A stretch of DNA of 64,000 bases from the IMG/VR virus record IMGVR_UViG_3300005686_000008, one strand, 5' to 3'. Below are positions 2,179 through 34,496 of this stretch, in pieces. Position 1 is the stretch's first letter. Each line of letters begins with the position of its first letter. The notes beneath the pieces are model-generated. The model saw only the letters and a list, made by a program, of their open reading frames with translations, was not told the DNA's origin and did no database searches. The DNA comes from a virus. Its lineage: Duplodnaviria > Caudoviricetes. The position numbers and the translations under genes were made by a program.

Positions 2179-2373
2179 ATGAAAATCACACCACAACAAA
2201 TGCAAGAACTTGACCAGGCAACAGCACGCTATGTTGACCTCATAACTCCTTCCCTCAAAAGACTTTATGATAACCTCATAGAGTCAGGAATACCCAAGGA
2301 AGTTGCAGCCCAAGCATTAGCAAGAGCAGCATCTGACCTGTTCATATCGTTCCTTGGTATTAAGAGAGAATAA
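2179..2373 (+). CDS. hypothetical protein
   Basis: packed ORF. Confidence 0.6.
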   Translation: MKITPQQMQELDQATARYVDLITPSLKRLYDNLIESGIPKEVAAQALARAASDLFISFLGIKRE

Positions 2374-2379
2374 CAAAGT

Positions 2380-2598
2380 ATGGATACCGTCCTAACAATT
2401 CTCAAGTTCATTGCTATTGGCGTTGGAGTCATCATCGCTATCCCTGTAGCCGTTGTTCTTCTTGGAATGGCTGTCGCAATACTCGGCGCTATCGTTGAAG
2501 CAGGCGTCTTCCTCTTCCTCTTCCTTGTTGCCGCTGCCGCTAGCTTCTTTAATGCTTTCTTCGAAACGTTCTTTACCCCAAAGAACCCCAAAACCTAA
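2380..2598 (+). CDS. hypothetical membrane protein
   Basis: long hydrophobic helices. Confidence 0.65.
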   Translation: MDTVLTILKFIAIGVGVIIAIPVAVVLLGMAVAILGAIVEAGVFLFLFLVAAAASFFNAFFETFFTPKNPKT

Positions 2599-2613
2599 GA
2601 AAGTTTCGCGCAT

Positions 2614-2901
2614 ATGAAAAAAGCTTTCACCCTCATCGAAATTCTTGTTGTCGTTATTATCTTTGCCATCATTGTTCTAATCATAACCGCTGTTACTCCC
2701 TCGTCAAAAAGAAATACACCAAAACAACCAACAGTACCCGCAAACTTCACTGTACTCTCCAGAGAAGCTACAGGAGCAACCTGCTGCGAACCCTTCATCA
2801 TTATTGTCAAAGATTTACAGACAGAGCAGGAATATATCATCATTGAGGACGGTAGCGGAGTCTCTATAACCCCAAGATTGCCAAAGAAAGAAGAACGATA
2901 A
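2614..2901 (+). CDS. prepilin-type N-terminal cleavage/methylation domain protein
   Basis: MKKAFTLIEILVVVIIFAII class III signal peptide. Confidence 0.8.
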   Translation: MKKAFTLIEILVVVIIFAIIVLIITAVTPSSKRNTPKQPTVPANFTVLSREATGATCCEPFIIIVKDLQTEQEYIIIEDGSGVSITPRLPKKEER

Positions 2902-5986: not shown

Positions 5987-6721
5987 TCAAAACTTATAGT
6001 AACGGTCTTGATGTTCTTGGACATCTCGGAGGAACTGGTCCTTATCATCTCTGATTTTGAACTTAAGTCCGGCATTCAGTCGCAGTAGGTTTTCGGTCAA
6101 GCGAGAGACACGATTGGACCCATCTTGGAAGGGTTTGATACAGGCGATTCCGAGGGACGTAGTATAAATCTTACGTTCCAAGTTTTTCCAATCTGATTCT
6201 TCCATAAGTCTGGGGTTATCGAGTTGGTCTTTGATAGAGAGTACATAGGAGGAGTAATCTTGGAAGAGGCTGATGAGGAGAGGTTGGATTTGTTCTGGGG
6301 GAGGCATTTGGCGATGGCCCAGGGACTTTTCATGGATACGGTATTGACCGAGTTCATCTTTGGAGGGATAATCAATGGAGTTAATAAGTTCTTCTCCCTT
6401 TTTCCAAAAGTCATGAAGTAAGTTCTTATGAAGTTGTTTCAACCACGGGAACTGTGAATCGAAGTTCTTCATTGTTATAAGATTTGCTTTTGGGAACAGG
6501 TTTGGATTTTCAGCAAGTTGTATAACAAGGTGGATACATCTCATTTGACCTGATACGGCTGGATGCGCTCTACCCTGGAAGAGCAGGTTAGATTGGACTT
6601 CTTCTCGTTTCATGAAGATTCTTTCCATTTCATTAGAGTGGAGGATGAAGTCTATTTTTTCATCTTCTGTTACTTCCGGGAAGTAGCGTCTATCGAAGTC
6701 AGTGATTGGGATAAGTTCCAT
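5987..6721 (-). CDS. Fic/Doc family protein with non-canonical active-site motif
   Basis: HSNEME N-terminus, LHKNLL, GQYR, KPFQDGSNRVSR versus canonical HPFxDGNGRxxR. Confidence 0.8.
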   Translation of the reverse strand: MELIPITDFDRRYFPEVTEDEKIDFILHSNEMERIFMKREEVQSNLLFQGRAHPAVSGQMRCIHLVIQLAENPNLFPKANLITMKNFDSQFPWLKQLHKNLLHDFWKKGEELINSIDYPSKDELGQYRIHEKSLGHRQMPPPEQIQPLLISLFQDYSSYVLSIKDQLDNPRLMEESDWKNLERKIYTTSLGIACIKPFQDGSNRVSRLTENLLRLNAGLKFKIRDDKDQFLRDVQEHQDRYYKF

Positions 6722-12649: not shown

Positions 12650-13098
12650 AGACTGCAAAGCTTGTCAAGACAATTGAGATTAATCATCCCGAATATCCTG
12701 GGACGGTTATTAGTTTGAATATTTACGAGGTTGAAGGCGGCTATGTAGGCGTAGACTCTTCTTTTACGGATGAGGTTGCGAACTACATTGCGAATCCTTA
12801 CGCCGAGTGTCAGTTGGTTAAGCTTCCTGATCCGATTGGGAATGATGAAGAGATTGACCCTCCTCTGGAGGAGGATGAACTCGTTGGGTTCTTGCGCATT
12901 TTGACTGCATTTGACTCAACGATTCAACTTTTGCCAGTTGAGCAGCAAGAGATCATTATGAACGGTTTGGCGAAGAGGTCTGGTTTGGCTCGCGACCGTT
13001 TGAGCGTGTTGCTCGGGTTGGCTCGTCAGGAAGTTGATTCTGCTGCTTTGTTCCAGTTTGTACAGGCCTTGAAGCCCGAAAGCGAAAATGGGGATTGA
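12646..13098 (+). CDS. hypothetical protein
   Basis: ATGA-coupled ORF. Confidence 0.7.
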   Translation: MKTAKLVKTIEINHPEYPGTVISLNIYEVEGGYVGVDSSFTDEVANYIANPYAECQLVKLPDPIGNDEEIDPPLEEDELVGFLRILTAFDSTIQLLPVEQQEIIMNGLAKRSGLARDRLSVLLGLARQEVDSAALFQFVQALKPESENGD

Positions 13099-13744
13099 TA
13101 ATCTCATAATCATTGGCGACATTCATGGGAAATGGCCCATGCTGAAGAATGTCTGCGACAAGTACAAGGACAAGACTGTTCTTGGGCTTGGAGATGTCGG
13201 TCTGGGCTTTTTTGGGAGCAGAGAGCCGAAGCTTCCTGAGAACTTTCGTTTTTTCCGCGGAAATCATGATAACCCCGCCGTCTGCAAGGCTCACCCTCAG
13301 TACACCGTTGATTACGGAATGTGGGAGGGCGTCTACATTCTCGCCGGCGCTGACTCCATTGACAAGAAATGGAGAACTGAAGGTAGGGATTGGTGGCCTG
13401 ATGAGCAGTTGAGCCGTGAGAACATGGAGTTAGCTTTGGAGGACTATGCCAAGGCAAAGCCCGACATTTTGATTTGCCATGAGGCTCCCTTCAGGATTCA
13501 CGAGATTGCTCGGGCGGCTTCAGTTACGCATGACCGCAACAACGAGGGCTGGGGCGGCGCAAAGGGCAACTCCACCGCCTTTTTGTTGGATTCGATGATT
13601 CAGGCTCATATGCCGAAGATGTTGGTACATGGGCATTGGCATAACCCGTTGATTTACAAGCATTGGGGCTGTGTTTTCATCTCTTTGGCGGAACTTGAGG
13701 CGTTGGATTTGGCTGAGGCTGCAAAATTCTTTCGTGTTTTTTGA
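13088..13744 (+). CDS. calcineurin-like metallophosphoesterase
   Basis: GDIHG, GDVG, GNHD, HEAP, GHWH motifs. Confidence 0.9.
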   Translation: MGIDNLIIIGDIHGKWPMLKNVCDKYKDKTVLGLGDVGLGFFGSREPKLPENFRFFRGNHDNPAVCKAHPQYTVDYGMWEGVYILAGADSIDKKWRTEGRDWWPDEQLSRENMELALEDYAKAKPDILICHEAPFRIHEIARAASVTHDRNNEGWGGAKGNSTAFLLDSMIQAHMPKMLVHGHWHNPLIYKHWGCVFISLAELEALDLAEAAKFFRVF

Positions 13745-13752
13745 AGGAGTTC

Positions 13753-13781
13753 TTGACATCTAGCCGAAAGAGGTATAGAGT
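13753..13781 (+). promoter_or_regulatory. sigma70-type promoter for the Leu leader/tRNA-Leu array
   Basis: TTGACA-17 nt-TAGAGT, 7 nt before the leader ATG. Confidence 0.7.
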
Positions 13782-13788
13782 GACCATT

Positions 13789-13836
13789 ATGAAGAATGCA
13801 TCCTTGTTATCCTTGAGCCTACTACTCCTCAGTTGA
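13789..13836 (+). CDS. Leu-rich attenuator leader peptide MKNASLLSLSLLLLS
   Basis: 7 of 15 codons are Leu (TTG,TTA,TTG,CTA,CTA,CTC,CTC); overlaps alternative hairpins. Confidence 0.8.
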   Translation: MKNASLLSLSLLLLS

Positions 13837-13910
13837 GGGGCAGAAGTCTCATTGCTTGCAAGGCAAGTTGTGACCCTGCTCCTCCCCAAAGAGAAGTAGG
13901 GTTTTTTGTT
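13822..13910 (+). promoter_or_regulatory. transcription attenuator (1:2 pause, 2:3 antiterminator, 3:4 terminator)
   Basis: seg1 CTACTCCTC 13822-30, seg2 GAGGGGCAG 13835-43, seg3 CTGCTCCTC 13876-84, seg4 GAGAAGTAGGGT 13891-902 plus poly-T. Confidence 0.8.
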
Positions 13911-13927
13911 TTGGCAAGTAAATATTC

Positions 13928-14001
13928 GCTCGTGTATCCCAACTGGCAGAGGAGCAATCCTGAGAAGGTTGTTGTTGGTGGTTCGAATCCACTCATGAGC
14001 A
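13928..14001 (+). tRNA. tRNA-Leu(GAG), short variable loop
   Basis: GCTCGTG/CATGAGC acceptor, CAATC-CTGAGAA-GGTTG, TTCGAAT loop. Confidence 0.85.
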
Positions 14002-14007
14002 TTTGTA

Positions 14008-14091
14008 GCGGCTATGGCGGAACTGGCAGACGCAACAGCTTGAGGTGCTGTCTCTCGAAAGGGAATGGAGGTTCAAATCCTCTTAGCCGCA
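14008..14091 (+). tRNA. tRNA-Leu(GAG)
   Basis: GCGGCTA/TAGCCGC, ACAGC-TTGAGGT-GCTGT, long V arm. Confidence 0.9.
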
Positions 14092-14102
14092 TTTGACAAT
14101 TA

Positions 14103-14183
14103 GGCCCTGTGGCGTAACGGCAGCCGCGCCAGACTTAGGATCTGGTCCCGTAAGGGGTGGAGGTTCAAATCCTCTCAGGGTCA
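14103..14183 (+). tRNA. tRNA-Leu(TAG)
   Basis: CCAGA-CTTAGGA-TCTGG, long V arm. Confidence 0.9.
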
Positions 14184-14197
14184 TTTGGAAAAAGCAG

Positions 14198-14280
14198 GCC
14201 CCTGTGGCGAAACGGCAGACGCGGCAGATTCAAAATCTGCTTCCCGCAAGGGAGTGGAGGTTCAAGTCCTCTCAGGGGCA
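14198..14280 (+). tRNA. tRNA-Leu(CAA)
   Basis: GCAGA-TTCAAAA-TCTGC, long V arm. Confidence 0.9.
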
Positions 14281-14286
14281 TTTAGA

Positions 14287-14360
14287 GAGCATGTGGCGAA
14301 ACGGCAAACGCGCCAAGCTCAGAACTTGGTTCTCTGGAGGTTCGAATCCTCTCATGCTCA
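14287..14360 (+). tRNA. tRNA-Leu(CAG), short variable loop
   Basis: GAGCATG/CATGCTC, CCAAG-CTCAGAA-CTTGG. Confidence 0.85.
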
Positions 14361-14378
14361 TTCCGCAGGCTAAACTTT

Positions 14379-14452
14379 GGCCCCGTAGCACAATTGGCAG
14401 ATGCACTCGATTTAAGGTCGAAGGGTTGAGAGTTCGAATCTCTCTGGGGCTA
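14379..14452 (+). tRNA. tRNA-Leu(TAA), short variable loop
   Basis: GGCCCCG/TGGGGCT, CTCGA-TTTAAGG-TCGAA. Confidence 0.8.
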
Positions 14453-14457
14453 TTCTG

Positions 14458-14820
14458 ATGGCATTAGTTGTTTGTTCAAATCCTCTTGGTCGGGCGCTCA
14501 AGTCTTCTCTTGTAGAGAAAGCAACAGAGCTGGCACGAAAGGATATTGCTCACGCAATAGTTTGCGATTGGATTAGCATTTACAGAGCATGCTTTGACAT
14601 GAATGAGCCAGACATTGACTGGGATATGTGGACAAAGTATGTGAATGAGTTGGAATCTTCTTTATTAACTTTCATTGACAGAGGAGAGATTGCCAAACGA
14701 AGAATTTTGTTTTCTTCGATTATTAGACCCCGTGGCGGAACCGGCAGACGCAACGGACTTAAAATCCGTAGACCTTCAAAAGTCATGGGGGTTCAAGTCC
14801 CCCCGGGGCCATTAGACTAA
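14458..14820 (+). CDS. hypothetical protein whose 3' end overlaps a tRNA-Leu
   Basis: ORF fills the gap between tRNAs; last ~30 codons run through the tRNA. Confidence 0.45.
   Translation: MALVVCSNPLGRALKSSLVEKATELARKDIAHAIVCDWISIYRACFDMNEPDIDWDMWTKYVNELESSLLTFIDRGEIAKRRILFSSIIRPRGGTGRRNGLKIRRPSKVMGVQVPPGPLD
14726..14811 (+). tRNA. tRNA-Leu(TAA)
   Basis: ACGGA-CTTAAAA-TCCGT, long V arm. Confidence 0.9.
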
Positions 14821-14881
14821 ACTTTTTGCCAAGTAGTGATACGCTGTAGGGACAGCCTTTTTCTAGTCGATGTAACACTGC

Positions 14882-14982
14882 GCGGCAGATAAAAAGCTCA
14901 CTACTCGTTTGGTAGGCGAATATCATCAGTTGACTTGATGGTTGAAAAGGAGAGCTAGCGGGTCAAAAACCCGCCTGCCGCT
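14882..14982 (+). ncRNA. tRNA-like structured RNA (acceptor stem plus T-like arm, atypical core)
   Basis: GCGGCAG/CTGCCGC 7 bp stacked on GCGGG-TCAAAAA-CCCGC; internal AGCTC/GAGCT helix with two hairpins. Confidence 0.55.
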
Positions 14983-14987
14983 TTAGA

Positions 14988-15242
14988 ATGAAGCTTTATC
15001 CTCGTCACAGGAAGGTTCTTTCCGCCGTCAACGGGTATAGCGATCTCAATTATGTCTGTCAAAGAACAGGCGTTCAATCCGTAATTCAGGTTGCAAAAGA
15101 GTTAGAAAAGGCCGGTCTTATTCGTGTCAGGAAAAGAGGCTATATGAAACGGCGCTCTTATTCCTATTCACTCGTTAAGACCAAAGGGGCCTACGAAAGA
15201 ACCGCTGCTGGTCATAAGATTGTGGGGAAACATGCTTGGTAA
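14988..15242 (+). CDS. putative winged-helix DNA-binding protein
   Basis: basic; ...VAKELEKAGLIRVR...YSL wHTH-like pattern. Confidence 0.55.
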   Translation: MKLYPRHRKVLSAVNGYSDLNYVCQRTGVQSVIQVAKELEKAGLIRVRKRGYMKRRSYSYSLVKTKGAYERTAAGHKIVGKHAW

Positions 15243-15471
15243 CACTACGCCGGATTTGGACTCTCAGGGTCGTGACCGGAACGACTATGCTCGCTGCAAG
15301 ATGTGTAACGCTTCTGCGCTGGACAAGGAAGTTCATCTTGAGCCGAGCAGGTCTGCTCTTATCTTTGGTCCGTTCCCTGGGATGAGGGTTCCGATGGAAC
15401 ATCGCTGCACTGATTGCGAGCAAAAGGTCTGCGACGGTATTAACAAAACATTGGAAGCGATGAAAAGATGA
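15232..15471 (+). CDS. small zinc-finger protein
   Basis: CKMC...CTDC. Confidence 0.6.
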   Translation: MLGNTTPDLDSQGRDRNDYARCKMCNASALDKEVHLEPSRSALIFGPFPGMRVPMEHRCTDCEQKVCDGINKTLEAMKR

Positions 15472-15893
15472 GAATCATGTTCTTAGATGACATGAAGAGC
15501 AGGCGAGACGCTTTCAAGCAAAATGCTATTGGTCACATTGTTGACTTTGCCTCCACTGCGCAGGAGGCGATTGCTTTTTTGCGCGCAAATAAATACGACG
15601 CCATCTACCTCGACCATGACCTAGAGGCTGAGCATTATCAAACCAACGAGGAGTACCACGAAGACGGTAGTTTCGTTGCTCGCAATTTGGTTGATATGAA
15701 TCAGCATCATGGAGTCATTGTCGTTGTTCATAGTCTCAACCCGAGCGGAAGATTGAATATTAGAAGCATTCTTAAGGAAAGCTTTGATGTTTGGCTTCCA
15801 GAGAACTTCAGGGGCATTAGCGAGCTTTGGAAGATTGAAGTGAATGTTATTATTGGAGCAATCAAGAAATATAACAAACAGTCAAAGGACTAA
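15468..15893 (+). CDS. cyclic-phosphate-processing receiver-like domain protein
   Basis: IMFLDD...IYLDHDL...VVHSLNP signature. Confidence 0.8.
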   Translation: MRIMFLDDMKSRRDAFKQNAIGHIVDFASTAQEAIAFLRANKYDAIYLDHDLEAEHYQTNEEYHEDGSFVARNLVDMNQHHGVIVVVHSLNPSGRLNIRSILKESFDVWLPENFRGISELWKIEVNVIIGAIKKYNKQSKD

Positions 15894-15958
15894 ACTTTTT
15901 TCTCCTTGAAATAGGTACTTGTCGATATACTGGTCGATAATGCCTAAAGGAGGGCGTC

Positions 15959-16255
15959 ATGACTGTTAATGAATTTCTTGACATTGTGCAGGTCGGATAT
16001 GTCGTTCAAATAGTCTGGAACGGGCCTTTGTTTGACCCTGATTTGATTGTCAAACCTGGTGAAAAAACAGTCGGCCTTAGTAAGGTGTATACTTGCGGAT
16101 TTGTTGCATACACTGAACCGGGCGGATCTTTCATTTCTATTGGAATAGATGCAATGTATGAAGCTGAAGGAACTTCTCCTAGCTTTAGAAGTATTGTAAC
16201 TATTCCTGTTTCTTCTATTGAGAGCGCAGAGATTTATGGCGCAATTGTGAAATAA
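15959..16255 (+). CDS. hypothetical protein
   Basis: SD AAGGAGG. Confidence 0.65.
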   Translation: MTVNEFLDIVQVGYVVQIVWNGPLFDPDLIVKPGEKTVGLSKVYTCGFVAYTEPGGSFISIGIDAMYEAEGTSPSFRSIVTIPVSSIESAEIYGAIVK

Positions 16256-16323
16256 AAGAAGGAATTCAGGAAGCGTAATCGGTATGAGTGTAAAATCGGT
16301 TCACAATTCTGTGAGATTCATTC

Positions 16324-16352
16324 TTGACTTTTGCGGAAATAGCCGATAGAGT
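16324..16352 (+). promoter_or_regulatory. sigma70-type promoter for the Trp leader/tRNA-Trp pair
   Basis: TTGACT-17 nt-TAGAGT; same -10 as the Leu promoter. Confidence 0.65.
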
Positions 16353-16371
16353 ATGGCGGAGTAGTACAGAA

Positions 16372-16437
16372 ATGAACAACAAGATAGTACATCAGGTGAT
16401 TTGGCATGTCATTACCTTCAGGGGTAAGGGCTGTTGA
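16372..16437 (+). CDS. Trp-containing leader peptide MNNKIVHQVIWHVITFRGKGC
   Basis: GGAG SD, single TGG at 16402, overlaps antiterminator segment. Confidence 0.65.
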   Translation: MNNKIVHQVIWHVITFRGKGC

Positions 16438-16500
16438 CTACTTGATGTATGTTGACGGATTCTCGAACCCCTGAGCAAAAGTGCTTAGGGGTTTTTTGTT
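16388..16500 (+). promoter_or_regulatory. transcription attenuator upstream of tRNA-Trp genes
   Basis: terminator AACCCCTGAGCA/TGCTTAGGGGTT plus T-run; antiterminator TTCAGGGGT (16417-25) pairs ACCCCTGAG; competing helix 16388-97/16440-49. Confidence 0.7.
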
Positions 16501-16532
16501 TGGTTCTTTGACAAGTGAATAGTTAGCATTTT

Positions 16533-16603
16533 ACGCCGTTGGTCTAGTGGCTGGGCCTTGGATTCCAAATCCAACGACGCGGGTTCGATTCCCCCACGGC
16601 GTG
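16533..16603 (+). tRNA. tRNA-Trp(CCA)
   Basis: ACGCCGT/ACGGCGT, TTGGA-TTCCAAA-TCCAA. Confidence 0.88.
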
Positions 16604-16608
16604 TTCAT

Positions 16609-16681
16609 CCGCCGTTAGCTCAACTGGTAGAGTTCTGGATTCCAAATCCAGCGGTTGCGGGTTCGATTCCCCCACGGCGGG
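16609..16681 (+). tRNA. tRNA-Trp(CCA)
   Basis: CCGCCGT/ACGGCGG, CTGGA-TTCCAAA-TCCAG. Confidence 0.9.
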
Positions 16682-16778
16682 CTTGCTGGCTAAACTTTTC
16701 TTGTGATTTCACAAAATAATGAGAAAGGTCTAGTCGATAAGACCTATAGTTTCTTTCCTTTCTTTTTGGAGATTTTCA

Positions 16779-17117
16779 ATGTCTGATACCAAGTCTTCTC
16801 GTCCTCGTCGTCCTCTTCAGAAGCCTGTTTTCATTATTCAGGATTTCGATCCTTCGAATCCCGAACACATGAAGGGCAATGTTCCGATTATCCTGAACAA
16901 GGCTTTGGCCTTGGAACTCGTCAAGTTCATCAGGGAAAGCGAACTTGGACCGAACGAAGGACATATTTACGCCATGCAGGGACGCTTGGGGCGTTGGTAC
17001 AAGAACCGTATCGAACATATCAGGAAGTTGAAGGCTGAAGAGGCCAAAACTGCGCTTCCTGAAGAAGTTCATGATGAGATTCATGAAGAGTCTCATGAGA
17101 ACCCGGTTCAAGGCTGA
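16779..17117 (+). CDS. hypothetical protein
   Basis: GGAG SD, coding-like composition. Confidence 0.7.
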   Translation: MSDTKSSRPRRPLQKPVFIIQDFDPSNPEHMKGNVPIILNKALALELVKFIRESELGPNEGHIYAMQGRLGRWYKNRIEHIRKLKAEEAKTALPEEVHDEIHEESHENPVQG

Positions 17118-17127
17118 GCAGTTATTT

Positions 17128-17200
17128 GGGCGCATACGTCAGCGGCTAGACGGCTTCCTTTACACGGAAGAGGGCGGGGGTTCAAATCCCTCTGCGCTCA
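17128..17200 (+). tRNA. tRNA-Val(TAC)
   Basis: CTTCC-TTTACAC-GGAAG. Confidence 0.9.
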
Positions 17201-17221
17201 TTTCCCTATGTGGGATTTGAT

Positions 17222-17294
17222 GGTGGCTATAGTTCAAAGGCTAGAATACCTGGTTGTGAGCCAGGGGGTACGGTTTCGAGATCCGTTAGCCACC
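17222..17294 (+). tRNA. tRNA-His(GTG)
   Basis: G-1, GTGGCTA/TAGCCAC, CCTGG-TTGTGAG-CCAGG. Confidence 0.85.
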
Positions 17295-17307
17295 CTTTGA
17301 TTTGTTT

Positions 17308-17379
17308 AGGACTGTAGCTCAGAGGCAGAGCATTCCCTTGATAAGGGAGGGGTCGGGATTTCAATATTCCCCAGTCCTA
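17308..17379 (+). tRNA. tRNA-Ile(GAT)
   Basis: AGGACTG/CAGTCCT, TTCCC-TTGATAA-GGGAG. Confidence 0.85.
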
Positions 17380-17386
17380 TTTTCCC

Positions 17387-17476
17387 CGGATAGTGTCCTG
17401 AGTTGGCTAAGGGGCCGCCTGATAAGCGGTGCATACTCCACAAGAGTATATGTAGGTTCGAGTCCTATCTATCCGA
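17387..17476 (+). tRNA. tRNA with GAT (Ile) anticodon and long variable arm
   Basis: CGGATAG/CTATCCG, GCCGC-CTGATAA-GCGGT, V arm ATACTC-CACAA-GAGTAT. Confidence 0.75.
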
Positions 17477-17488
17477 TTATAATCTTAT

Positions 17489-17562
17489 GGGCGTCTGGCG
17501 CAATTGGCTAGCGCGCTTCTTTGACGTAGAAGAGGTTCCGGGTTCGAGTCCCGGGATGCCCA
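17489..17562 (+). tRNA. tRNA-Val(GAC)
   Basis: CTTCT-TTGACGT-AGAAG. Confidence 0.9.
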
Positions 17563-17597
17563 CTTCAGACTAAACTTTTTGGGGAGAATATTAAGAC

Positions 17598-18518: not shown

Positions 18519-18594
18519 GGGATGCGTGTTGCCGAACGGTTTAGGCTCTCGACTCATAATCGAGGCAATGTGGGTTCAAGTCCCACCCATCCCA
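18519..18594 (+). tRNA. tRNA-Met/Ile2(CAT)
   Basis: CTCGA-CTCATAA-TCGAG, GTGGG-TTCAAGT-CCCAC. Confidence 0.8.
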
Positions 18595-20167: not shown

Positions 20168-20294
20168 GCTTGAAAAGGTGAAACGAACGAGGATACAATG
20201 AAGAGCATGTTCCTTGGGCCTTTCGATGGCAGCCTGCAAGGGACAACCCACTGCGACGGAAACGACGTAATGGGTGTTTGACGGTTTCTTTGAT

Positions 20295-20621
20295 AAGTGA
20301 ATATGGTAAGCGGTGGCTGAAAACCTAATGTCTATCTCCAGACATAAGGCACTGAGTTTATGGTGACTCAGGTACGAGTAAGCCATTTTGGTGTAGTGCA
20401 GAAGGAAAACGGGTATCCGGCAAAGGCCATAGGAAAACCGTTGGGGCGCTAAAATCTCGACTGGCCATACTAACAATGACCAGGGGAGCGGGATTGCAGG
20501 TAACCATTCCTGCCTCGGAGAGACCTGATTCGAAGCGGGTTTCATTGATGAGTCGCATAATAACATCAGGATGGACGAAAATTCAGAGGCTAGTAACCTC
20601 TGCCGCTTACCATGTTCACTT
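20295..20621 (+). ncRNA. large structured ncRNA of unknown class
   Basis: 22-bp terminal helix with G-U pairs enclosing at least 6 hairpins; no + strand ORF. Confidence 0.7.
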
Positions 20622-20636
20622 TTCAATGGAGGTTTT

Positions 20637-20753
20637 ATGTGGTACAAAGTAGAACACAATCCACCGGATGATGACAACAGCGGTAGCGATTCGAATTGCC
20701 CTTGCGGTGATTCTGATTGCGACGGCGGCGGTAGCGATGGCGATTACGATTGA
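20637..20753 (+). CDS. 38-aa acidic Cys-containing peptide
   Basis: GGAGG SD; MWYKVEHNPPDDD...CPCGDSDC. Confidence 0.5.
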   Translation: MWYKVEHNPPDDDNSGSDSNCPCGDSDCDGGGSDGDYD

Positions 20754-21083: not shown

Positions 21084-21158
21084 ACGCCCAAAGCCTAAAT
21101 GGTGAGGCACTCGGCTTTCATCCGAGGTATCTAAGGTTCGAATCCTTAGTGGGATGTT
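21084..21158 (+). tRNA. tRNA-Glu(TTC), irregular acceptor stem
   Basis: CTCGG-CTTTCAT-CCGAG, CTAAGG-TTCGAAT-CCTTAG. Confidence 0.7.
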
Positions 21159-34354: not shown

Positions 34355-34496
34355 GCCGACATAGTTTATCCTGGTTAGAACAGCAATGTTTGACTCAAGT
34401 AGGAGCTAGCGCAGTTCTGAAAAGTAGTCAAACCGAGCCTTGGCGCAAAGGCGGGAAAATTGAAAGAAGGAGGTTCGATCCCTCCTGTCGGCACCA
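34355..34496 (+). ncRNA. enlarged tRNA-like RNA with the anticodon loop replaced by a branched domain; encoded CCA
   Basis: GCCGACA/TGTCGGC-ACCA, D arm, GGAGG-TTCGATC-CCTCC; terminator 34505-34530. Confidence 0.75.

Follow-up and report, generated by a model that had tools for sequence, protein, structure and literature searches.

Introduction

The properties of the Escherichia coli trp attenuator that are used here for comparison are well established. Other leaders of this kind combine the codons of several amino acids, as ilvL before ilvGMEDA (Ile, Val and Leu) and thrL (Thr and Ile) do, and a shortage of any of these amino acids relieves termination. In the pheST attenuator of E. coli, the pheM leader precedes a translation gene whose product deals with the amino acid being sensed. 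The described cases of leader-peptide attenuation known to us all concern synthetase genes or genes of amino-acid biosynthesis, and a full-text literature search returned no paper on leader-peptide attenuation of tRNA genes. Here we analyse a compact and portable unit of ca 180 nt, hereafter called the Trp unit, that precedes two tRNA-Trp genes in a 64,000-nucleotide stretch (the window) of the tailed-phage record IMGVR_UViG_3300005686_000008.

Comparison of the Trp unit with related loci, together with RNA folding, leads us to favour, with moderate confidence, a multivalent ribosome-mediated attenuator. It would respond to Ile, Val, His and Trp codons and gate the tRNA-Trp genes and probably also the Val-His-Ile-Ile-Val tRNA genes further downstream. 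The broader claim, that the unit is a ribosome-mediated attenuator of any kind, is one that we hold with good confidence. As far as we know, the new element would be that a known attenuation logic is wired to viral tRNA genes, with a leader that spells the isotypes encoded downstream.

Architecture of the Trp unit

All parts of the Trp unit stand in the classical order and spacing of leader-peptide attenuators (Table 1). A promoter is followed by a short open reading frame (ORF), a long hairpin (H1), an antiterminator strand (segment 2) and an intrinsic terminator. The -10 hexamer TAGAGT is identical to that of a second unit located upstream of the tRNA-Leu genes (promoter at 13753-13781), and the sequence GCCGATAGA is common to the promoters of the Trp unit, the Leu unit and a tRNA-Glu cluster. 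A Shine-Dalgarno sequence, GGAG, is found at 16358-16361, just 6-9 nt past the -10 hexamer. Two further ORFs, at 16406-16474 and 16449-16511, were dropped as their lengths are not kept in relatives.

The base of H1 is a 12-bp helix (16387-16398/16439-16450). The 5' strand of the hairpin holds the regulatory codons and its tip holds segment 2. Segment 2, TTCAGGGGT (16417-16425), lies 12 nt past the Trp codon and is complementary to positions 16467-16475 in the 5' arm of the terminator, with which it can form 9 bp (-15.9 kcal/mol). The terminator ranks first among the terminator-like sites of the 12-28 kb region, and the distance from the stop codon to the end of its U-run is 63 nt. The region of the Trp unit folds better than 200 out of 200 shuffled sequences (z = -4.4).

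An earlier, sequence-only reading of this DNA had recognised the promoter with the -10 of the Leu unit, the 21-residue ORF led by a Shine-Dalgarno sequence with its TGG at 16402, and two tRNA-Trp(CCA) genes behind them. All three are borne out here, the ORF with the qualification that its Shine-Dalgarno sequence would lie right at the 5' end of the predicted transcript, and the tRNA genes by both ARAGORN and Rfam. The other elements of that reading are present with changed limits. The terminator, given as a 12-bp stem (16466-16493), has 13 bp; the antiterminator, placed about 13 nt past the Trp codon, covaries with its partner and is spaced by 12 nt; and the competing 10-bp helix (16388-97/16440-49) is actually part of the 12-bp base of the 27-pair H1.

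Table 1 Features of the Trp unit and of the genes behind it, in window coordinates
Feature	Position	Strand	Basis or detail
Sigma-70-type promoter, TTGACT-17-TAGAGT	16324-16352 (-35, 16324-16329; -10, 16347-16352)	+	Consensus scan
Leader ORF, 21 codons, MNNKIVHQVIWHVITFRGKGC followed by stop	16372-16437	+	TGG at 16402-16404; stop codon at 16435
Regulatory codons ATA GTA CAT CAG GTG ATT TGG CAT GTC ATT (I V H Q V I W H V I)	16384-16413	+	
Hairpin H1 (anti-antiterminator, equivalent of 1:2), 27 pairs	16387-16450	+	Minimum free energy and centroid folds
Segment 2, UUCAGGGGU, antiterminator 5' strand	16417-16425	+	Pairing with 16467-16475
Intrinsic terminator, 13-bp stem 16465-16477/16482-16494, loop AAAG, TTTTTT	16465-16500	+	Free energy -20.5 kcal/mol
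Conserved motif TTCTTTGACAAGTGAATAG, boxA-like	16504-16522	+	Kept in L002, L003/L015, L008, L011, L013
tRNA-Trp(CCA) 1	16532-16604	+	ARAGORN, Rfam
tRNA-Trp(CCA) 2	16609-16682	+	ARAGORN, Rfam
CTAAACTTT, copy of a phage-wide strand-specific motif	16690-16698	+	Behind tRNA-Trp 2
orf112, conserved protein between tRNA-Trp and tRNA-Val genes	16779-17117	+	
tRNA-Val(TAC), His(GTG), Ile(GAT), Ile(GAT), Val(GAC) cluster	17127-17563	+	ARAGORN

Conservation in related loci

Relatives were sought with the neighbouring proteins, with a degenerate DNA pattern and by exact protein look-ups. Eight related loci were found, on two IMG/VR contigs, one ENA assembly and five Logan or JGI contigs. The degenerate DNA pattern gave one of the relatives, L008; a pattern scan of viral contigs gave just two that were already known, and a protein-based scan of metagenome contigs with the 98-residue neighbour gave none. 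L012 is cut off upstream of the leader. The seven other loci and the window provide six distinct versions of the unit. DNA identity to the window is 64-69% in the adjacent gene for the 98-residue protein, 85-94% in the leader ORF and 93-97% in the 30-nt core.

All six versions fold into H1 and the terminator. The energy of H1 is between -21 and -32 kcal/mol in all variants, and 96% of its alignment cells are paired versus 35-49% in slid controls. The promoters of the relatives read TTGACT-17-TACAGT, TATAGT or TAGAGT and TGGACA-17-TATACT, with T1, A2 and T6 of the -10 hexamer invariant. The 5' untranslated region (UTR) is 14-22 nt longer in the relatives than in this phage, and the ATG has an upstream purine-rich or GGAG stretch in six of the six variants.

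The terminator is present in all variants with differing arm sequences: its 5' arm reads ACCCCUGAG, ACCCCUUGAG, ACCCCUGGGA or ACCCCUGGGU. Segment 2 tracks these changes, with the versions UUCAGGGGU, CUCAAGGGGU, UCCAGGGGU, CUC[U]AGGGGU and ACCCA[C]GGGGU, and the cognate duplexes have energies of -14 to -19 kcal/mol in all variants. When every segment 2 is combined with every arm (6 x 6), the cognate partner is best or equal best in five of the six rows, that is, in all but that of L011. At most 1% of shuffled segments attain the duplex energy of the real ones. In the gap-free alignment, 93.7% of the antiterminator cells pair and three of the nine pairs are altered on both sides. The covariation score is 0.312. 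Shuffles give 0.171 +/- 0.044, with 1 of 500 attaining the observed score, and slid controls do not exceed 0.095. Comparison of the six versions thus indicates that the antiterminator is kept by compensatory change. Because the Trp unit is kept in six variants and its antiterminator covaries with the terminator arm, we consider it to be beyond chance.

The ORF is also maintained. It has 21 codons in five versions and 20 in L011, which shows an in-frame deletion of 3 nt, and in L013 a pair of -1/+1 changes preserves the frame. Three versions end in TGA and three in TAA. The ninth codon, for Val, is GTG, GTT or GTC, so that a G-U pair of H1 is broken and Val is kept. The codons located before H1 differ (AAG ATA GTA; ATA GTT GTA; ATA GTC GTA; ATA GTA; GTG ATA GTA); these variable N-terminal codons, which have no structural constraint, stay Ile/Val (KIV, IVV, IV, VIV). 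On the other side of the core, the last seven residues are variable (TFRGKGC, TSRGSDC, TSRGKDC, THGVGDC). Such a pattern is the expected trace of selection on codon identity in a leader that would be translated. It speaks against conservation of the peptide as a product, and equally against an element that acts as RNA alone.

A variant of ca 90% identity was found in two wastewater metatranscriptome runs and two freshwater DNA runs, as contigs only. Among the differences listed for it in a partial table, only the 5' UTR, codons 3-4, the spacer and the terminator loop are affected. The RNA contigs of this relative span the promoter and the terminator and are uninformative on starts, ends and strand.

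Codon content of the leader

Nine of the ten core codons specify Ile, Val, His or Trp. These are the four isotypes encoded by the seven tRNA genes that come next (Trp, Trp, Val, His, Ile, Ile, Val). To evaluate this match, the genome was scanned for the amino-acid set fixed by the downstream tRNA genes, not picked from the leader. The core is unique among 465,128 stop-free ten-codon windows, in six frames, in having at least nine codons of the set with all four amino acids present. Two other loci of the genome reach nine such codons, and neither has all four amino acids. Given that Ile, Val, His and Trp make up 16.4% of usage in the genome, a binomial model yields a probability of 7e-7. Both Val isoacceptors encoded downstream are sampled in the core, by GTA and GTG (anticodon TAC) and by GTC (anticodon GAC).

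The leader is therefore best read as multivalent, of the ilv/thr type, and not as a weak one-codon Trp sensor. The sequence-only reading had the kind of element right: a codon-sensing attenuator before tRNA genes agrees with conservation and compensatory changes in six variants. Its view of the content was too narrow, and the Trp leader with a single Trp codon that it proposed is not supported in view of the match to four downstream isotypes. The Trp codon itself, whose conservation in relatives had been put forward as a check, is invariant across the six variants.

Ribosome position and proposed mechanism

The effect of the ribosome was modelled by folding transcripts that ended just before the 3' arm of the terminator, with 27 nt around each A-site codon kept unpaired. 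In all six versions, the CCCC core of the terminator is predicted to pair with segment 2 for A-sites up to the Val of Trp-His-Val. It is predicted to be partly paired when the next Ile is in the A site, and never paired from Thr onward. The modelled ribosome opens H1 only from about codon 3-4 onward, and at the stop codon it covers segment 2. The opening of H1 and the limits of the antiterminator would therefore define a permissive window corresponding to I V H Q V I W H V.

These models suggest the following scheme, in which we infer leader translation, stalling, the kinetic competition of structures and the extent of read-through. Host RNA polymerase would start near 16359 and a ribosome would begin the 21-codon leader. 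With plentiful Ile, Val, His and Trp aminoacyl-tRNAs, the ribosome would reach the stop codon (16435) and cover 16417-16425, the terminator would form and the transcript would end at about 16500. If no ribosome were loaded, H1 (16387-16450) would form first and hide segment 2, again leading to termination. A stall on I V H Q V I W H V (16384-16410) would open the 5' strand of H1 and free segment 2, which could then pair with 16467-16475 before the 3' arm of the terminator exists. The polymerase would continue into the two tRNA-Trp genes and probably, via orf112, into the tRNA-Val, His, Ile, Ile and Val genes. The net outcome would be a feedback loop in which scarce charged Ile, Val, His or Trp tRNA leads to more synthesis of those tRNAs.

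Reach of the unit and downstream motifs

A scan for terminator-like sites found no strong one between 16682 and 17563. With no strong terminator from tRNA-Trp 2 to tRNA-Val(GAC), read-through could therefore span all seven tRNA genes. The position of the orf112 homologues is identical in all relatives, and orf112 itself has no Pfam or PHROG family match. The Val-His-Ile-Ile-Val order of the tRNA genes is unchanged in L002, L003, L008 and L011-L015.

A conserved block, TTCTTTGACAAGTGAATAG, lies between the terminator and the first tRNA-Trp gene. Part of it, GGTTCTTTGACAA, agrees with the rrn boxA of E. coli, TGCTCTTTAACAA, at 10 of 13 positions. A literature string search for this boxA-like motif returned primer sequences only. 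Similar copies immediately precede the tRNA-Leu cluster, a Y-RNA-like gene and a structured RNA of ca 325 nt (20303-20629). The last copy sits inside a sigma-70-like promoter, TTGACG-18-TATGGT, at 20278-20307. The motif already noticed in the sequence-only reading is conserved in all relatives, and the boxA label is a matter of resemblance only for a block that recurs before other structured RNA genes. The block at 16504-16522 may be a boxA, a processing signal or a start site. We also considered TTGACA at 16508 as the -35 hexamer of a second sigma-70 promoter. This candidate was rejected because the window shows no acceptable -10 hexamer at a distance of 16-18 nt; moreover, the candidate -10 of L008 abuts the tRNA, and the motif of the Leu unit ends 2 nt before the tRNA.

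The ca 325-nt element (20278-20640 with its promoter region) is RNA-like, with a 15-bp terminal helix (TGGTAAGCGG.../...CCGCTTACCA) and a z-score of -3.5. It has no Rfam match at E values up to 1.

A second motif, represented by CTAAACTTT, follows tRNA-Trp 2. Its general form, (g/a)gaCTAAACTTT, occurs in the whole genome in 62 copies on the window's + strand and 2 on the other, versus ca 1.4 expected. Almost all copies are within one region of 125 kb; those of the window are found for example at 14370, 14817, 15890, 16690, 17570, 19487, 19943, 21533 and 21586. The motif often includes the stop codon of the preceding gene and is then exactly 20 nt ahead of the next ATG. Relatives retain it, with the version CTAGACTTT in L008, and they have a copy of CTAAACTTT where the orf112 homologue ends, 14-17 nt ahead of tRNA-Val. 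The motif (g/a)gaCTAAACTTT is probably a phage-specific promoter, with TAAACT resembling a -10 hexamer, or a processing site. If CTAAACTTT acts as a promoter, transcription can also enter the Val-His-Ile cluster at a second site that escapes regulation.

The Leu unit and other tRNA clusters

The Leu unit (13753-13927) has a TTGACA-17-TAGAGT promoter, an ATG located 7 nt past the -10 hexamer and the leader MKNASLLSLSLLLLS. In two relatives (L009, 1380-1530, minus strand; L010, 1375-1530, minus strand), the ATG is 6 nt past the -10 hexamer and the leader is MNTNFNSLLCGLLLLE. This is a different sequence, which again encodes a Leu-rich peptide, with TTG, TTA, CTC, CTA and CTT codons. Because the ATG is 6-7 nt past the -10 hexamer in three of the three loci, the Leu leader mRNA is probably leaderless. 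The Trp unit and the Leu unit are of the same design.

A Glu/Arg tRNA cluster is located at G000:C1 ca 343,980-344,160 (minus strand), about 57.5 kb before the window start. Its promoter, TTGACA-17-TAGACT, is of the same class and contains GCCGATAGA as in the Trp promoter. A 17-codon ORF, MNSSFKFLEQRNFQERR followed by a stop codon, is also present and the region folds well. It is doubtful as an attenuator and was rejected as such: it has no U-run terminator, and only 5 of 16 codons are cognate. No attenuator unit was seen upstream of the Met and Lys tRNA genes. The sequence-only reading had anticipated a general system in this phage and suggested scanning the other tRNA groups. In this incomplete record, the scan leaves two clusters with a unit, Leu and Trp, and no convincing attenuator at the Glu/Arg, Met and Lys clusters.

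A promoter-like sequence, GGCTAAACTTTCTGCGGAAAAGCCGATAGAGT, which is a near-copy of the promoter region of the Trp unit, was observed at G000:C1 ca 360,500-360,740 (minus strand), about 74 kb before the window start. It is followed by ca 160 nt closed by a long-range helix (GAGTTGTTCGGAAAGTCTGG ... CCAGATTTTTCGAACAACTC), a candidate structured RNA.

Alternative explanations

Several observations weigh against a multivalent attenuator. In the predicted transcript of this phage, the Shine-Dalgarno sequence would stand right at the 5' terminus, and it is weak in L008 and L013. H1 is without double compensatory changes, since it is nearly invariant, and its conservation could come from a constraint on the peptide or on the RNA. 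The Gln codon of the core has no phage tRNA in a record that is 73% complete. In L002, L003 and L015, endonuclease genes on the opposite strand are found between the attenuator and the downstream tRNA genes. The block at 16504-16522 or CTAAACTTT could be an extra promoter, which would make tRNAs, above all those of the Val-His-Ile cluster, independent of the attenuator. Finally, the full-length transcript at equilibrium always forms the terminator, whatever the position of the ribosome, and without a ribosome the antiterminator conformer of the shortened transcript is about as stable as H1. The switch would therefore have to be kinetic, resting wholly on the assumed order of co-transcriptional folding.

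It is also conceivable, although unlikely, that the attenuator controls the tRNA-Trp pair alone and is in essence a Trp sensor. The Ile, Val and His codons would then serve to build the hairpin, and the Val-His-Ile genes would have their own start. The tRNA-Trp genes are indeed the sole genes directly behind the terminator, and the invariant Trp codon is at the most effective stalling position. The copy of CTAAACTTT after tRNA-Trp 2, found shortly before tRNA-Val in the relatives, could provide such a start, as could sigma-70-like hexamers (TTGATT-16/17-TACGAT, TACAAT or TATAGT) seen by eye just after tRNA-Trp in the relatives. However, the genome has no other window with the Ile/Val/His/Trp composition of the core, which corresponds exactly to the isotypes encoded downstream. 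The codons that precede the hairpin are structurally free and vary, yet remain Ile or Val, and the third base of Val9 (G, T or C) breaks a pair while Val is kept. The stretch between tRNA-Trp 2 and the Val-His-Ile cluster also has no strong terminator. These observations favour the multivalent attenuator.

We regard as quite unlikely that the unit is an independent small gene, either an mRNA for a hydrophobic peptide of 21 residues or an RNA of ca 140 nt, with the tRNAs transcribed from another start, for example 16504-16522. A promoter and a terminator do bracket a compact, strongly folded and highly conserved unit. The recurrence of TTCTTTGACAAGTGAATAG 5' of structured RNA genes, once overlapping the promoter at 20278-20307, would fit a separate start for the tRNAs. 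But the Leu-unit copy of this motif is too near the tRNA, at 2 nt, to be its promoter. The C-terminal third of the peptide is not conserved. In addition, a small gene leaves unexplained the covariation of segment 2 with the terminator 5' arm, the match of the peptide core to the downstream tRNA isotypes, and the Leu-rich ORF found in the same arrangement at the Leu cluster.

A translation-independent switch, in which a protein, a tRNA (as in a T-box) or a small molecule binds H1 or the antiterminator and the ORF is incidental, appears very unlikely. The nucleotides of H1 are almost invariant, third codon positions included, as expected for a recognised RNA, and UGG is within an internal-loop region of H1. 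Against this, Rfam gives no match, T-box included, at E values up to 10. H1 is far below the size of a T-box stem I, and the unit lacks a T-box bulge that could pair with NCCA. In a T-box, uncharged tRNA switches expression on, a logic that would hardly suit a tRNA gene. Moreover, the start, frame, length and stop (TGA or TAA) of the ORF are conserved, with synonymous and Ile/Val-preserving changes.

A plain constitutive terminator or insulator behind the 98-residue gene, with the ORF and the complementarity arising by chance, is highly improbable. In its favour, a 9-bp complement to a G+C-rich arm within ca 90 nt would not be very surprising in a single sequence (a probability of about 0.06 by our own estimate), and for the window 1% of the shuffled versions of the 27-nt segment attain the observed value. 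Against it, the promoter hexamers between the 98-residue gene and the terminator are conserved, the ORF, H1 and antiterminator are kept in six variants with compensatory changes, and the codon composition is found nowhere else in the genome.

Genomic context

The virus record is linear, has 370,652 bp and is estimated to be 73% complete; the window is a part of it. Full-length matches among public runs were found in bioreactor-sludge DNA metagenomes only, possibly the phage's own source. A blastn search against GenBank phages gave matches restricted to tRNA genes. The record contains at least 25 tRNA genes, of which 17 are inside the window. On the + strand, seven tRNA-Leu genes (13928-14811) are followed by four protein genes, the Trp unit (16324-16531) and the two tRNA-Trp genes (16532-16682). 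Then come the 112-residue ORF (16779-17117) and the tRNA-Val(TAC), His, Ile, Ile and Val(GAC) genes (17127-17563).

Other tRNA-like elements were observed. ARAGORN finds a tRNA with anticodon CUA, labelled Pyl and thus an amber suppressor, at G000:C1 ca 363,190-363,260 (minus strand). Rfam gives three more tRNA-like matches (36.6-38.9 bits) that are not called by ARAGORN, at 18528-18587, 21087-21154 and 34355-34493. The last of these is 139 nt long and may contain an insert.

Endonuclease-type genes were found inside the tRNA cluster of relatives, at 2237-2875 (minus strand) in L003, 983-1606 (minus strand) in L015, 2298-2756 (minus strand) in L002 and 6232-6562 (plus strand) in L008. Those of L002 and L008 are HNH-like. 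The inserts of L003 and L015 have taken the place of the 5' part of the second tRNA-Trp gene, of which only the 3' end remains.

Two genes located between and before the tRNA clusters of the window encode a protein with a cREC_REC receiver domain (15468-15893; Pfam PF20274, cyclic-phosphate processing receiver, E = 4.5e-13) and a calcineurin-like phosphoesterase (13088-13744). Both genes are syntenic in the relatives. Together, the two genes suggest an island for RNA repair and tRNA supply.

Possible roles

If the multivalent attenuator operates as proposed, its feedback on charged-tRNA supply would be as direct as it can be. The leader could also predict which tRNAs share one transcription unit. 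This bears on why large phages carry tRNA genes, for codon usage or for escape from tRNA-targeting defence. As a tentative extension, which we would not hold with much confidence, the Trp and Leu units may act together as an inducible counter-defence. Slow codons would reveal a depletion of particular host tRNAs, brought about for instance by anticodon nucleases of the host or by turnover of tRNAs in infection, and would trigger the synthesis of exactly the replacement tRNAs. The cREC_REC domain, the phosphoesterase and a Ro60 with Y RNAs encoded elsewhere in the genome fit this context. With either role, the tRNA islands of phages would be regulated, demand-driven modules rather than constitutive ones, and under counter-defence they would not be constitutive codon-usage patches.

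Comparison with known systems

A search of 13700-16760 with Rfam, at E values up to 10, gave no match to the Trp, His, Leu or Thr leader families or to the T-box (RF00230). The Trp unit nevertheless has the defining parts of a leader-peptide attenuator: a short ORF, a cluster of cognate codons, a terminator, an antiterminator exclusive with it and an upstream hairpin. It departs from the described cases in its targets, which are tRNA genes here and, in all described members known to us, genes of amino-acid biosynthesis or aminoacyl-tRNA synthetases.

The boxA of rrn operons and of the lambda nut sites is a parallel for the block that follows the terminator. The segment GGTTCTTTGACAA resembles the consensus GCUCUUUAACAA and heads an operon of untranslated RNAs, where protection from Rho would be useful. 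Unlike boxA, the block is longer (TTCTTTGACAAGTGAATAG) and recurs 5' of structured RNA genes, once inside a sigma-70-like promoter.

T-box elements share with the Trp unit, as proposed here, a codon-specific response, a choice between termination and antitermination, and the ability to report the charging of a given tRNA. They differ in binding the tRNA directly, without translation, through a stem I specifier loop and a bulge, whereas the Trp unit has a conserved ORF and no T-box match.

The closest parallels are the leader-peptide attenuators of E. coli. Like the trp attenuator (trpL; Rfam Trp_leader, RF00513), the Trp unit has a short promoter-proximal ORF with regulatory codons in the 5' strand of the first hairpin. 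In both, an antiterminator of 9-12 bp overlaps the 5' arm of the terminator and leaves the loop-proximal pairs free, and the intrinsic terminator is found 60-70 nt past the stop codon. The terminator is the more stable structure in both, which implies a kinetic switch. The two systems show no similarity in sequence or by covariance model. One Trp codon stands among Ile, Val and His codons here, whereas trpL has two adjacent Trp codons, and the trp attenuator regulates biosynthetic enzymes instead of phage tRNA genes. The pheST attenuator is chromosomal, senses one amino acid and controls an aminoacyl-tRNA synthetase and no tRNA genes. The mixture of Ile, Val, His and Trp in one ten-codon run recalls ilvL and thrL. 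In contrast with these leaders, the set of amino acids follows the downstream tRNA isotypes and not a shared pathway, and Ile, Val, His and Trp have no common metabolic logic. The output is tRNA, so that the loop would close on the supply of charged tRNA, not on the synthesis of amino acids.

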